A stretch of DNA of 41,177 bases from a virus (IMGVR_UViG_2534681997_000004:1-41177), one strand, 5' to 3'. Positions 1 through 22,250 are shown, counted from the first letter of the stretch. A program made the numbers and translations. The notes: generated from the sequence alone by a model not told the origin.

Positions 1-1194
1 ATGATCACCGACACAAAGCTCAGGAAGGCGCTCGGCAAGAAAAGAGATGATATCGAGATTATTTCTGATTCGCACGGGCTCAACGCCAGAATCAGCCAAG
101 CCGGAAAAATATCATTTTTCTATCGGTATCGCTGGGCCGGTAAAGCGGTAAAACTCAATGTTGGTGATTATCCTGCAATGAGTATCACCCAGGCAAGAGA
201 GCGTCGCCAACAATTCAGAAACTGGTTAACTGAGGGACTGGATCCGCGAGAGCAGGTGAAGCTGGATAAGCAGACCCGACAGGAAGCGATGTCCGTTGCC
301 GAAGCGTTCAATTACTGGATTGAAAGGCACTGTATCGCTAACGGGCTAGTTAAAGTCGATTACTATCGCCAGGTGTTTGAGAAACATATCGCCGAACCGA
401 TGAAGAATGTCAAAGTCGATAACACAGCGAAAATGCACTGGATCAACGTCTTCGATTCTATAGAAAGCAGGGTGATGGCTCATTACATGCTTTCGCTGTG
501 CAAACGGGCGTTTAGGTTCTGCGTTAACAGAAGTGTGATCGCCTCAAACCCACTCGAGGGATTACTGCCATCTGATGTCGGGCAAAAGCCTAAAAAGAGA
601 ACTCGCAGGATGGACGATGACGATCTGCGCAAAATCTATCAGTGGTTGAAAAGCCATATGTCGATAGAGTCCGTTTTCCTGGTGAAATTTATTATGCTTA
701 CCGGATGCCGTACGGCTGAGATTCGACTTAGTGAGAGATCATGGTTTCGATTGGATGATAATGAGTGGGTCGTGCCTGCGGGCAGTTATAAAACTCGGGT
801 ACATATTAGAAGGGGACTCTCAGACGCCGCCGTTAACCTGGTCAGAAATCACCTCAAGAAAATAAACACCAATCACCTGGTGACTTCACAACGTAAAATT
901 GATGGCGGGATCAAAGATTCGCCCGTTCATTCACCTGTGGCATCCAATTACGCCCGTTCTATTTGGAATGGAACAGGTATGGCAGAGTGGTCGCTTCATG
1001 ATATGAGGCGGACGATAGCCACAAATCTCTCTGAGTTAGGTTGCCCGCCGCACGTAATTGAAAAGCTGCTCGGGCATCAGATGGTGGGGGTTATGGCGCA
1101 TTACAACCTTCATGACTATATCGATGATCAGAAACACTGGCTCCGCGTTTGGCAGAGCCATCTTGAAGAGATCATCGGAGAGCCCTTCAGTTAA
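1..1194 (+). CDS. int: Tyrosine recombinase / phage integrase (P4-like family)
   Basis: 397-aa ORF; C-terminal catalytic region with LHDMRRT (HxxR) and LGHQ...MAHY motifs typical of tyrosine integrases; ORF begins at window position 1 so the true N-terminus may lie upstream. Confidence 0.85.
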
Positions 1195-18118: not shown

Positions 18119-18172
18119 TGTCAACTTTATGAGCAAACTGATCTTAATTACTGTAACTAGGTGGTCAATGAT

Positions 18173-18811
18173 ATGGCAACGCTTAAGGACCTTTCCAGTC
18201 AGTTAAGACAGCTGCAGAAGCAAATACCGTTTGCGACTGCCCAGGCTATGACTAAAGTGGTTCGCCAGATAGAAGCGGCCCAAAAAACAGCATTTGAGCG
18301 GAATCTGGATAATCCAACACCTTTTACAGTTAAATCGGTTGGGTCAGTTGGTGCCAGGAAAAACAGCCTTCGTGCGAAGGTGTTTGTTCGTGATACTGCT
18401 GCTGGTTACCTTGAACCCTTCGAGTTCGGCGGAGAGCACAAGCTTAATGGTAGTGCTTTGCTTAACCCGAAAGACATAAAGCTTAATAAATACGGCAACC
18501 TGCCGCGTAATAAGCTCTCTCAGCTCAAAGCAAAGGAAAATGTATTCGTAGGTGAGGTGGATGGCGTTAACGCTGTCTGGCAGCGTAAGAAACCGATGAA
18601 AGCTAAGAAGCGACGGGCCAAGCGCTCCGCTAATGGGACGCGAAGACCGAAACGTAAACAGCGTTCTCCAAAGCTTTTGATCCGGTTTGGTGATGCGCTA
18701 CCTGTGACTCCAGTGCTGGGGTATATGGATAGGGCCCGTACCATGGCGAACGCACTGCTACCGTCTGCTTTAAATCAGGCGATAGCAGAAGCCATCAGGA
18801 CGGCAAAATAA
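18173..18811 (+). CDS. Hypothetical protein with Lys/Arg-rich segment
   Basis: 212 aa from ATG 18173 (AGGTGG RBS); basic stretch KKPMKAKKRRAKRSANGTRRPKRKQRSPK. Confidence 0.45.
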   Translation: MATLKDLSSQLRQLQKQIPFATAQAMTKVVRQIEAAQKTAFERNLDNPTPFTVKSVGSVGARKNSLRAKVFVRDTAAGYLEPFEFGGEHKLNGSALLNPKDIKLNKYGNLPRNKLSQLKAKENVFVGEVDGVNAVWQRKKPMKAKKRRAKRSANGTRRPKRKQRSPKLLIRFGDALPVTPVLGYMDRARTMANALLPSALNQAIAEAIRTAK

Positions 18812-18821
18812 AAGCAGTAAC

Positions 18822-19325
18822 TTATAAGTTAATTTCGCAAGCTTTTATGAAGCTGTTTACTGCAGTTGTCGATCCAGAAACATTGGCTGACATGGAATGC
18901 TGGTTTCCGCCATCCTTTGTTTGCACACCAACTAACACTTTGGATTTCGCCCCCTGAAGCTGCTTAAGCACTGTTTTTAGTTGGTCCGCGTCATCCGATT
19001 GAATCTGGAGGCTCTGAACATTACGTCTTGAAAGGGTAGCATCGAGCTTCACTGCGGTATTCCCGTCGACCTTCATTATCAGGTCCATTGGTACCTCTGA
19101 TAGTGATTCGGTGCTTTTATCCATTTCAACGTATGCCGCCGATAGCTTTTCTTTAGTGCAGTCAAACACAATGGCGCCATTGTCGGATGAAACCTCGCCA
19201 AGCATCATTGCTTTCTTACCACCAGAGAAAAGGTCATCTTCAGTATTAGTTACCCACTGGGCATGAGCAATTGGTGATGCCAGCACTGCGGCTACGAAAG
19301 TTATTTTGATTATATTGTTACCCAT
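18822..19325 (-). CDS. Secreted/periplasmic hypothetical protein (signal peptide), opposite-strand moron
   Basis: AAGGAG RBS 7 nt before ATG 19325; N-terminal signal MGNNIIKITFVAAVLASPIAHA-QW; AT-rich. Confidence 0.55.
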   Translation of the reverse strand: MGNNIIKITFVAAVLASPIAHAQWVTNTEDDLFSGGKKAMMLGEVSSDNGAIVFDCTKEKLSAAYVEMDKSTESLSEVPMDLIMKVDGNTAVKLDATLSRRNVQSLQIQSDDADQLKTVLKQLQGAKSKVLVGVQTKDGGNQHSMSANVSGSTTAVNSFIKACEINL

Positions 19326-19468
19326 TACATTCTCCTTGTATTGAATAGGAATAATCATAGTCGGAGCGAATGGTCGAAGCCATTAAAAAAATGGGTCCTT
19401 CCTGAGACTTTTGTAAGGTACGGGCATTGCGCGCCGCGGTGTTTTCCTAGCTACAACTTTCAGATTTG

Positions 19469-19618
19469 TGTCCCATGTCCCACCTCTGGCGATCATTACG
19501 GACACCTCGCCAGCTCTGGCTATTCCAGTTTATTCCAGTGGGACATTCTGGTGGGACATGGCAAAAATGTCCCAGGCGAATGTCCCACCCCAGAAAATGT
19601 CCCAGGTGATGTCCCATG
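19469..19618. repeat. Array of about 8 TGTCCCA repeats (6 direct, 2 inverted); candidate cosB-like terminase binding sites
   Basis: TGTCCCA at about 19469, 19476, 19569, 19581, 19599, 19611 and TGGGACA at about 19539 and 19551, ending at the Nu1-like start codon. Confidence 0.55.
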
Positions 19619-20185
19619 ACCACGATGAACCAGAGTCAGTACGCACAACATTCAGGTGTGGATCGCAAAACAATTGGTCGGTGGATTAAAGCCGGGCGCT
19701 TCATTGTGATGGACGGAGACCTGATTGACGTAGAGGCCAGCGATGCGGCATTGAAGAAAAACCGCGATGGCAAAGACCCGCGCGCCTCGAACGCGAAGAA
19801 AAAGAAAACTCCCGTCGTTAGCGATAACGATGATGACGGTGATGAAATCAATAAAACTGTCCGCCAGATAATGCTCACTGAAGGGGCAGATCTTTCGAGA
19901 GAGGAAGCGGGACGTATCCGCGAGAATTACATGGCCCTGCAGGCAAAGCTGCAGTATGAAAAAGACAGCGGCCAGCTTATTGAGCTGACAGCAGCCGAGG
20001 AGGTTTTATTCAACGCCTTTCGCCAACAGCGTGATGCCTGGCTTAACTGGCCGTCCAGGGTGGCGCCGCTAATGGCTGCTGATCTGGATGTACCGGCGGA
20101 CAGGATGACAGAGGTGCTGATTGAACATGTCCACAAACACATCTCAGTCCTCGGAGAGCCAGAGTTTAACCCGGCAGAAGATTGA
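19616..20185 (+). CDS. Terminase small subunit (Nu1-like)
   Basis: 189 aa; N-terminal HTH (QYAQHSGVDRKTIGRWIKAG); immediately upstream of and overlapping the large terminase gene. Confidence 0.6.
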   Translation: MTTMNQSQYAQHSGVDRKTIGRWIKAGRFIVMDGDLIDVEASDAALKKNRDGKDPRASNAKKKKTPVVSDNDDDGDEINKTVRQIMLTEGADLSREEAGRIRENYMALQAKLQYEKDSGQLIELTAAEEVLFNAFRQQRDAWLNWPSRVAPLMAADLDVPADRMTEVLIEHVHKHISVLGEPEFNPAED

Positions 20186-22250
20186 GCGTCTTGAATTAAG
20201 CGTCCGCAAAGGCTGGACACCCCCGCCGCGTATCAGTGTGCCGCAGTGGGCAGATGACTATCGTAAGCTGGCAAAAGAGGCTGGGAGCACTTCGGGAAAC
20301 TGGGAAACATCGACGGTAGAAATTGCCCGCGGACCGATGCTTGCCGCGACGGAGTCCGGGGTTCATATCATCACTGTAATGTGCTGTACCCAGTTGATGA
20401 AGACAGCACTGCTGGAAAACCTTTTTGGCTATTTTGCCCACCTCGATCCTTGTCCGATACTGCTGCTGCAGCCGAAAGAAGAAGCCGCTGAACAGTTTTC
20501 GAAAGAGCGTATTAGCCCGCTGGTAAGGGTGACGCCGGTACTGCGTAAAATCATCGGTGATTCGAAACAGAAAAGCTCGAAAGAAACCATTCTTTACAAG
20601 GCATTCACTGGCGGATTTCTGGCGCTGGCGGGTGCTGGTAGCCCTGATAACCTTGCGCGTCGTCCGATTCGTGTCCTGCTGGCGGATGAAGTGGACAAGT
20701 ACCCGATAACCCGCGAAGGCGATCCAATTGCGCTGGCCGAAGAGCGTACAGCGACATTTGGCCTGACCTGGCTGTCTGTACGCGCCTGTTCGCCGACGGT
20801 GGAGGATGAGAGCCGCATTGCTGACAGCTACGCCGACTCCGATCAGCGCCGGGCATCTGTGGTTTGCCCGCACTGTGGCCACCGCCAGTTCCCCGACTTT
20901 TTCAAACACGTTCAGTGGCCGAAAGAGGGAGATAAACACCTGACTAAATCGGCGATGCTCTATTGCGAATGCTGTGGTAGTGGCTGGTCCGAAGGACAGC
21001 GCCTCAGAGCTCTGCACACTATTCGATGGCATCAGACGCGCCCATTTGAGTGCTGCGGGGAGCGGCACTCACCGCTGATGGATTATGACCTTGCCTGGCG
21101 GGCGGCAGACGAGGGCAGCGTTGAAAAGGTCTGGCAATGGTCAGAGTCGGAACGGCATGCGGTCTATCGCGCAATCTGCCCCTCCTGTGGAAAGGAGGCA
21201 GTCGATAACCACCACGCGGGGTACCAGGCATCCAAGCTTTTCAGCCCCTGGCAAAAAGATAAGCCGTCGGATATTGCGAAAAAATATATCGATGCGAAGG
21301 GCGATCCGGATAAGGAACAGGCGTGGTGGAATACCCAGATGGGGCTTCCGCACCGACCTAATCATGGGAAACAGCTCCCTGTTGATGTTCTGCTGGCGCG
21401 CCGGGAAATATTTCCGGCCGTCGTTCCGGACGGGGTGGCATTGTTAACAGCTGGAGTTGATACCCAGGACGATCGCTTCGAAATTACGATCACCGGCTGG
21501 GGGAGAGATGAAGAATCGTGGTCGGTCGCGCATGACGTTATTTATGGTGACCTTGAGACGGAAGAACCCTGGAAGCGACTGGATGCATACCTGAAACAGA
21601 TCTGGCGACGTGGTGACGGGCGCGGCCTGAATATCATGGCAACGTGCATGGACTCCGGTGGCCACCATACGCAGAAGGTATACGAATTCGCCAAAGAGCG
21701 TCTTGGCCGTCGTGTCTGGGCAATTAAGGGGGAGTCTGCACAGGGAGGTAAACGCAATCCTGTCTGGCCGACCAAACGACCATCATCGAAAAGCAAAGCC
21801 AGTTTCCGCCCTGTCATTCTGGGGGTTAACTCAGCGAAAGACGTGATACGCGGTCGCCTGCATCTTGAGCCACCCAAACCTGGCGCCGCCGCTGCGGGTT
21901 ATATGCATTTTCCTGACGATCGCGATCTCGGGTACTTCAATCAGCTGCTGGCGGAGCGACTGGTTTACAAAGTCATTTCCGGGCAGCGGTACAGTATCTG
22001 GGAAGCAATACCAGGACGAGCTAACGAAGCGCTTGACTGCCTCGTTTACAGCTATGCCGCGCTGTGCGGTCTCAAACATATGGGGTTAAAACTCAACGTC
22101 CGGGCCGCCAACCTCGAAGCCGATCCGGATAAGTTCCTGCCAGCGCCAGTTGGACAGGAAGAAAAAATCAATTACGAGCTGCCGGGTGCGGTTATTGAAG
22201 AACCAGCGCCGGTCAAACGTAAGCGAATATCGCAACTCCTGCCGAAATAA
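20127..22250 (+). CDS. Terminase large subunit (lambda GpA family)
   Basis: About 707 aa; ATPase region (ITVMCCTQLMKTALLENL ... VLLADEVDKYP) and C-terminal nuclease region typical of GpA-type terminases; TTG at 20121 alternative start. Confidence 0.85.
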   Translation: MSTNTSQSSESQSLTRQKIERLELSVRKGWTPPPRISVPQWADDYRKLAKEAGSTSGNWETSTVEIARGPMLAATESGVHIITVMCCTQLMKTALLENLFGYFAHLDPCPILLLQPKEEAAEQFSKERISPLVRVTPVLRKIIGDSKQKSSKETILYKAFTGGFLALAGAGSPDNLARRPIRVLLADEVDKYPITREGDPIALAEERTATFGLTWLSVRACSPTVEDESRIADSYADSDQRRASVVCPHCGHRQFPDFFKHVQWPKEGDKHLTKSAMLYCECCGSGWSEGQRLRALHTIRWHQTRPFECCGERHSPLMDYDLAWRAADEGSVEKVWQWSESERHAVYRAICPSCGKEAVDNHHAGYQASKLFSPWQKDKPSDIAKKYIDAKGDPDKEQAWWNTQMGLPHRPNHGKQLPVDVLLARREIFPAVVPDGVALLTAGVDTQDDRFEITITGWGRDEESWSVAHDVIYGDLETEEPWKRLDAYLKQIWRRGDGRGLNIMATCMDSGGHHTQKVYEFAKERLGRRVWAIKGESAQGGKRNPVWPTKRPSSKSKASFRPVILGVNSAKDVIRGRLHLEPPKPGAAAAGYMHFPDDRDLGYFNQLLAERLVYKVISGQRYSIWEAIPGRANEALDCLVYSYAALCGLKHMGLKLNVRAANLEADPDKFLPAPVGQEEKINYELPGAVIEEPAPVKRKRISQLLPK

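Follow-up and report, generated by a model that had tools for sequence, protein, structure and literature searches.

A predicted cos site with a heptamer array as candidate cosB equivalent upstream of the small terminase gene of an Enterobacterales prophage

What is the function of the repeat-rich, unannotated interval that lies immediately upstream of a small terminase gene (terS) in a prophage of Escherichia coli? The stretch of DNA analysed here (IMGVR_UViG_2534681997_000004; 41,177 bp, referred to as the window) carries in this interval an array of the heptamer TGTCCCA. An original prediction, made from the sequence alone, took the repeats as candidate binding sites of the small terminase and placed the genome ends just upstream of them. 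We examined the interval by comparison with relatives from E. coli genomes, IMG/VR and GTDB genomes.

Genomic context and predicted genome ends

The terS gene (19616..20185, plus strand) encodes a protein of 189 aa that matches the terminase small subunit family phrog_57 (E 4.6e-36). Its end is overlapped by the start of terL (20127..22250 according to PGAP, plus strand; open from a TTG at 20121), which encodes a gpA-type large terminase (PF05876, PF20454) having 29% identity to lambda gpA (E 2e-60). On the 3' side of terL are genes for gpW, a lambda-type portal, an S49 protease, a decoration protein and the major capsid protein, followed by Mu-like contractile-tail genes; on the 5' side of the predicted cos are a lambdoid early region and a lysis cassette. 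The early region of one relative (L001) contains three tRNA genes, and the window contains none. The prophage region was present in 59-63 of 5,426 complete E. coli genomes. A DNA search of INPHARED with 19300-20200 gave no match.

Upstream of cos, a 216-aa ORF (18161-18811, plus strand; phrog_1924, 'minor tail protein') is homologous to p72 of Serratia phage vB_SspM_BZS1 (hereafter BZS1) and is conserved at this place across the phage family of the window; the odd position of p72 was remarked on by the authors of the BZS1 paper (PMC7556043). The p72 homolog is separated from cos by an inserted minus-strand ORF (18822-19358; 178 aa, or 167 aa from the PGAP start at 19325; phrog_19473), whose N-terminus resembles a signal peptide. 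This minus-strand ORF is missing from many relatives, and their homology to the window resumes at 19392. PGAP/RefSeq annotation of an identical prophage shows no CDS between the minus-strand gene (19325) and terS (19616). Two plus-strand ORFs that had been called over the array were suspected from the start to be artefacts of the repeats. Besides their absence from the PGAP annotation, the 92-aa ORF starts in sequence that relatives lack (homology begins at 19392), and the 73-aa ORF overlaps terS out of frame; the suspicion was well founded. The terS ORF of five relatives is open upstream through the TGTCCCA array (MSHAMSHVSQCP...), and such ORFs would mislead gene callers into N-terminal extensions.

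Homology to other E. coli prophages starts at 19392. The segment 19392..19467 forms a 76-bp module that is 92-93% identical in E. coli prophages carrying different arrays; several of these prophages match the window in this module only, and their next ~150 bp are wholly different. One base inside the module is a cosQ-like heptamer, GGGTCCT (19393..19399, plus strand), followed by the predicted cosN core, GCATTGCGCGCC (19424..19435), a 12-nt 5' cohesive end for which nicking is predicted at 19423/19424 (top strand) and 19435/19436 (bottom strand). GGGTCCT occupies nt 31 to 25 upstream of the predicted top-strand nick, i.e., 24 nt separate the two. The same word is found in lambda, where it is reportedly cosQ (Wieczorek & Feiss 2001). 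According to Feiss et al. (2015), lambda-like phages show strong conservation of their 7-bp cosQ. GGGTCCT was identical in all 35 alignable relatives, and GCATTGCGCGCC was present in 58/58 loci retrieved via the cosQ side only; exact cosN or cosQ words were the retrieval keys for relatives, and a word used as key is invariant by construction. Between cosN and the first TGTCCCA lies a conserved spacer (GCGGTGTTTTCCTAGCTAC...; 19436..19468), which has the position of lambda's I2 segment and is weakly similar to lambda CGCGGGTTTTCGCTA.

The placement of the ends was obtained from BZS1. The 12-mer at 19424..19435 is the annotated cosL (1..12) of this phage (MT843275), whose linear record starts with GCATTGCGCGCC ('cosL; left cohesive end') and ends with ...GTAAAGCACGG (...CACGG); over positions 19419-19440, which take in the 12-mer and the bases flanking it, the window has the same sequence as the BZS1 cos junction. 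The BZS1 5' overhang was determined by PhageTerm on virion reads (Bujak et al. 2020, PMC7556043), and a single 12-bp cos was confirmed by comparison of a prophage PCR product with the phage ends (PMC7556043). BZS1 carries GGTAACA heptamers in a split architecture and is not of the TGTCCCA class; the ends given here are transferred from this relative. Nicks one base further left (TACG|GGCATTGCGCGC), suggested by an alignment with lambda, do not agree with the BZS1 record. The original prediction had located the genome ends near 19400..19470 and had offered the GC-rich segment CATTGCGCGCCGCGGTG as a possible nicking site. The segment is found at 19425-19441, the 12-mer and flanks matching the experimentally mapped BZS1 junction fall in the proposed range, and the guess was right to within a base or two of the predicted cut at 19423/19424. 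These comparisons make it very probable that 19392..19616 is a cos site with ends at 19424..19435.

Two breaks in database sequences coincide with or lie close to this position. An IMG/VR metagenome piece (L131) ends exactly at ...GTAAGGTACGG (...TACGG), the predicted top-strand nick, and two pieces of a 44,382-bp contig (L010/L136) abut at GTAAGGT|ACGGGC. Contig ends and storage boundaries look alike, and both breaks were set aside as evidence of ends. A literature search for the 12-mer GCATTGCGCGCC returned the BZS1 paper and one other match only; the latter, upstream of lrp, was rejected as a chance match.

Anatomy and conservation of the heptamer array

Exact TGTCCCA, counted on both strands, occurs nine times in the window. 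Eight copies lie inside 19469..19616 (148 bp): six direct copies beginning at 19469, 19476, 19568, 19581, 19598 and 19610 (plus strand) and two inverted copies, TGGGACA, at 19539 and 19552 (minus strand). The earlier description of about eight copies, six direct and two inverted, within ~150 bp up to the start codon was accurate. The sole copy outside the array is at 29413. Dinucleotide shuffles gave an expectation of 5.18 copies for the whole window, and the Poisson probability of eight copies in 148 bp was ~3.5e-19 per window position, or ~1.5e-14 over all starts.

The array can be divided into three groups of sites. A tandem pair, TGTCCCATGTCCCA (19469..19482, plus strand), located at bp 46-59 from the left end, is the candidate equivalent of lambda R3. 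After a variable spacer (19483..19538) comes an inverted pair (19539..19558, minus strand), 13 bp apart, which corresponds to R2 by orientation and sits in a 22-nt inverted repeat with arms at 19538-19559 and 19567-19588. Four direct copies (19568..19616, plus strand) with spacings of 13, 17 and 12 bp would correspond to R1. The Shine-Dalgarno sequence AGGTGA (19604-19609) lies between copies 7 and 8, and the terS ATG (19616) shares its A with the last copy (19610-19616). The resulting order, >><<>>>>, is the most frequent orientation string among relatives with TGTCCCA arrays (class A, see below) and recurs among those with GGTAACA arrays (class B). The most frequent spacing between neighbouring copies is 7 bp in the proximal pair and 12-13 bp elsewhere in the array.

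The variable spacer contains an inverted repeat, CTGGCGA (19486-19492) / TCGCCAG (19507-19513), and two copies of TATTCCAGT (19521-19529 and 19531-19539). The latter have a 10-bp period, adjoin the inverted heptamers, and are kept in E. coli-type relatives despite the drifting spacer. Other class A relatives have, directly after the tandem pair, a TGCATAnnTATGCA palindrome instead. Both elements could be sites of a second (host?) factor in place of lambda's IHF site. In one IMG/VR relative (L128), the 49-bp segment from the third to the sixth heptamer (window 19539-19587) is flipped relative to the window; because this segment is a quasi-palindrome, owing to the 22-nt arms, the flip leaves the arrangement of sites unchanged. 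An Rfam search gave only a sub-threshold miRNA match, which was taken as chance.

Conservation was measured in 35 distinct relatives that were alignable with the window and were chosen for having at least five heptamers. Within the 56 heptamer columns, 0.8% of cells differed from the window and 7 columns (7/56) were variable; the corresponding values for the 92 other columns of 19469..19616 were 23% and 59/92 (64%; Fisher p = 3e-10 for variable columns). Heptamer columns were thus ~30-fold better conserved than spacers. Each heptamer copy was intact in 30-35 of the 35 relatives, and the four direct copies in 31-35. The bias arising from the choice of relatives with at least five heptamers is small, because class A regions defined by protein motif (44, later 53) all have at least six. 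Part of the conservation of copies 7 and 8 could reflect translation signals (ribosome-binding site and start codon). The substitution pattern indicates that the heptamers are under selection.

Co-variation of the heptamers with TerS

An AF2 model of TerS was built from 26 homologs. Its mean pLDDT was moderate (69; ~76 for the N-domain), and in it an N-terminal winged helix-turn-helix (~1-50) is connected through a disordered linker (53-75) to a C-terminal domain made of helices. The order of elements in the N-domain was strand, helix 6-13, helix 17-25, wing and helix 39-50. The best PDB matches of this domain in Foldseek were mycobacteriophage Xis and BldC (4j2n, 6amk/6ama), the gpNu1 DNA-binding domain and the TerS domain 6hn7, all with E >0.1 because the domain is short; comparison with the lambda gpNu1 DNA-binding domain (1j9i) gave a probability of 0.92, TM 0.58, rmsd 2.8 A over 55 columns and E = 0.76. 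Sequence similarity to lambda Nu1 was marginal, as judged by BLASTP (E 0.043, residues 4-34 vs Nu1 3-33, ~29% identity over 31 residues) and hhalign (E 0.007, probability only 5.7%). A Pfam search of TerS at E up to 0.01 was negative, and a search of PDB sequences with the protein gave nothing useful; its RecA matches in that search were multi-copy, low-scoring and spurious. The model is consistent with the winged helix-turn-helix fold class, and sequence comparison did not place TerS in the Nu1 family. The label 'Nu1-like' used in the original prediction is apt for position, role and fold class; as a statement of family by sequence it fails. Nearly all clusters of TerS homologs (P0001-P0120) are annotated as 'hypothetical protein' without a Pfam domain.

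A total of 127 distinct cos regions was assembled from exact-word scans of IMG/VR and GTDB species genomes, plus E. coli loci, and classed by the predicted recognition-helix motif of TerS; 111 regions were classified. Class A (V(D/N)RKT(I/V)xRW; n=53), to which the window belongs, had 6-9 copies of TGTCCCA and no GGTAACA. Class B (VSRKTxTxWK; n=45) had 3-12 copies of GGTAACA and at most one TGTCCCA. The remaining classes were C ((M/I)SRR(S/A)FYNWES; n=7) with 4-6 copies of TTCACAC, D (CSDTLVRRAV; n=1) with 8 copies of GTTCGCA, E (MSRQALYxWE; n=3) with 6-7 copies of TTGACAC, and F (C(D/E)(D/E)K(L/Q)VRRA; n=2) with 4-5 copies of TGTCCGC. Each class had its own heptamer and essentially none of the other five. 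Between classes C and E, the heptamer changes at a single base and the helix at a few residues (SRRSFYNWES vs SRQALYxWE). The first heptamer started at bp 46-49 from the left end in all four classes measured. Because classes A, B and C are all present in E. coli chromosomes, a host protein cannot explain the differences between heptamers.

Seven loci of Burkholderiales/Neisseriales type share the cosQ-cosN core and have another TerS of 165-177 aa with the motif ISQQAVSDL, starting ~54 bp after the end. A search for a repeated heptamer in these seven loci found none; they have only a conserved AAGGGGGTTGTATG at the R3 position, which could be one isolated site or simply the ribosome-binding site.

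Comparison of the window with a class B prophage (L002) revealed ~92% identity in cosQ-cosN and 92% in TerL, and the two heptamer arrays were unalignable. Between the window and class B representatives, identity was 81-82% in the TerS C-domain and 50-52% in the N-domain. This pattern indicates that array and TerS N-domain are exchanged together as one cassette, while cosN, the TerS C-domain and TerL stay ~90% identical.

A second architecture was observed in BZS1 (L171, 245-305), phiNP (L173, 2674-2730), six further loci, and two loci with GTTCGCA. Here terS starts only ~75 nt after the cohesive end, 2-3 heptamers lie upstream of it, and 5-7 further heptamers lie inside terS ~200 bp on, in frame and in 12-15-bp steps. 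Translated, these in-frame copies give a (Gly-Asn-x-x)n linker that joins the two TerS domains, so the coding sequence appears to carry a packaging signal as well. Two other loci have cosQ-cosN and a TGTCCCA array without terS, terL or head genes. One, in E. coli 2015C-4136CT1 (L003, 3001-3260), is a remnant beside thiMD, next to thiM; in the other (L082, 5200-6000) tail sheath and baseplate genes come immediately after the array. Both loci may have arisen by deletion, or may be elements needing a class A helper in order to be packaged.

The idea that the repeats are candidate small-terminase sites gained from the conservation of the heptamers, their co-variation with the helix in six classes, the fixed, R3-like start and the exchange of the array with the N-domain; comparison with related cos regions, proposed at the outset as a check, revealed a shared cosQ-cosN and class-specific arrays. 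Taken together, these findings suggest that the heptamers are probably recognition sites of TerS.

Proposed mechanism, alternatives and known systems

The reading that we favour, with a probability of roughly 0.8, is that 19392..19616 is the complete cos of a temperate Enterobacterales phage with a lambda-type head and a Mu-type tail, in which heptamers read by TerS are the equivalent of cosB. According to this model, the winged helix-turn-helix N-domains of a TerS oligomer would read the heptamers. The tandem pair (bp 46-59), at the place of lambda R3, would position the gpA-type TerL on cosN, which TerL would nick with a 12-bp stagger. At bp 116-193, the two inverted and four direct copies would act as R2 and R1 do, keeping the complex stable on the left end, which would then dock on the portal. 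Termination at the next cos would be served by cosQ and cosN alone. Packaging specificity would be set by the heptamer sequence and the TerS N-domain, exchanged between phages as one cassette. Binding by TerS, the roles of the individual copies, and cutting in the window's prophage are points that we infer.

The heptamers might be packaging-specificity sites read by another phage protein, e.g., the p72 homolog, with TerS merely nearby. The p72 homolog is always adjacent to cos and is not identical across classes (79% identity, window vs L002). However, its divergence is evenly spread, it has no Pfam match, DNA-binding or other, and in the window the inserted minus-strand gene separates it from cos; moreover, it is TerS whose N-domain was modelled as a winged helix-turn-helix and whose helix motif sorts perfectly with the heptamer in the 111 classified regions, and the mosaic boundary is inside terS, not upstream of cos. 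A reader of this kind is therefore improbable. The position of copies 7 and 8 on either side of the Shine-Dalgarno sequence and start codon, and that of the array between divergent genes, might be expected if the array were chiefly a regulatory operator rather than a packaging signal, serving for example autoregulation of terS/terL or control of the divergent minus-strand gene. Yet a scan of 18700-19800 revealed no sigma-70-like promoter and no intrinsic terminator, most relatives keep the array without the minus-strand gene, and the copies in sister phages are mostly inside terS, ~200 bp from its start. The first heptamer, furthermore, is fixed at bp 46-49 while terS starts 44 to ~290 bp after the end. 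We assign the operator explanation a very low probability.

Neutral origin of the repeats by slippage or duplication, or as coding remnants, would account for a duplicated 30-bp unit (19564-19579 / 19594-19609) and for the several ORFs that are open over the array. It does not fit with the ~30-fold difference in conservation between heptamers and spacers, with the filling of the same architecture by six different heptamers or, for coding remnants, with the lack of any PGAP gene call over the array. Headful (pac) packaging was considered along with it; against this, TerL is gpA-type, cosQ and cosN are present, and the ends of BZS1 are unique, defined 5' cohesive ends. That the repeats lack function, or that packaging is headful, seems extremely improbable.

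The TerS-read cosB equivalent may be extended to a more specific reading, which we put forward tentatively and consider rather doubtful. The array would serve as a track for head-to-tail polymerisation of TerS N-domains in 12-13-bp steps, in the manner of Xis and BldC, with the tandem pair anchoring TerL at cosN and with no IHF hairpin. The helix/heptamer pairs, at least six, would form a natural code, and the signal of sister phages would lie inside the terS frame. If this polymerisation track were real, the recognition code would be readable, with one pair differing by a single base, and linker and DNA signal would be co-encoded in the sister phages.

A TerS-read cosB equivalent would provide candidate functions for an intergenic region that lacks annotation and for a Pfam-less family of 'hypothetical proteins' in many Enterobacterales genera, and the exact virion ends are predicted for a prophage type of E. 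coli. A common cosQ-cosN combined with at least six swappable cassettes of array and TerS N-domain amounts to a natural experiment on DNA choice by small terminases. It predicts which co-resident prophages can or cannot package each other's DNA, or that of cos-bearing satellites and plasmids.

The locus resembles lambda cos in the order cosQ, cosN, cosB, terS, terL; in the distance of GGGTCCT from the end (23 nt before the lambda right end vs 24 nt here); in the 12-nt 5' overhang, predicted here; in the direct / inverted / direct orientation of R3, R2 and R1; in the start of the small subunit gene (Nu1 ATG at bp 191 vs terS ATG at bp 193); and in having a gpA-type TerL together with a winged helix-turn-helix TerS N-domain, modelled here. 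The distance from cosN to R3 is crucial in lambda, where the critical R3 bases are at bp 55-63; the first site here is at ~bp 46-59. The differences concern the sites themselves. Lambda cosB has three 16-bp R sequences, whereas 7-bp words repeated 6-12 times are found here. The cohesive ends GGGCGGCGACCT (lambda) and GCATTGCGCGCC are identical at 5/12 positions, which places the phage outside the 'lambda-like' group of Feiss et al. (2015). The 'complex' cosB of lambda has an IHF site (I1) between R3 and R2; none was found here when both strands of 19380-19640 were searched for the IHF consensus WATCAANNNNTTR, allowing 1 mismatch. Because no IHF site was found, the lambda hairpin model is not simply transferable. 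The spacers are unrelated among relatives, some being AT-rich and some carrying the TGCATAnnTATGCA palindrome.

The direct-repeat arrangement has a parallel in BldC and Xis, MerR-like/excisionase-type winged-helix proteins and the best structural matches of the TerS N-domain. On direct repeats, proteins of this type bind cooperatively and form multimers in head-to-tail order. By analogy, such a binding mode would suit direct heptamers spaced by 12-13 bp, which we offer as conjecture; BldC and Xis are not terminases, and the likeness is at fold level only (all E >0.1).

Among terminase systems, phage N15 has a distal site inside terS. So do BZS1, phiNP and many IMG/VR contigs, in which the distal sites are ~200 bp away from the proximal ones. 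N15 has one inverted copy there, whereas phages of the BZS1 type have 5-7 in-frame copies and the window has all its copies upstream. BZS1 shares with the window the 12-nt overhang, the cosQ-cosN module, homologous TerS, TerL and portal proteins, and p72 upstream of cos; it differs in its GGTAACA heptamers and split architecture. The BZS1 paper mapped the ends, does not mention cosB or the repeats, and reported no viral homologs for the TerS (PMC7556043). Our literature search found no paper linking TGTCCCA with the terminase of the window. The relationship among the classes described here is like that between lambda and phage 21, which have a common cosQ/cosN and differ in cosB and in the TerS recognition helix, several specificities occurring in one host species (Feiss et al. 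2015). Two or three specificities were studied there, as compared with at least six sequence-defined classes here. The packaging principle is that of lambda and is already known; the probable cosB equivalent built as an array of heptamers is a new flavour of it.
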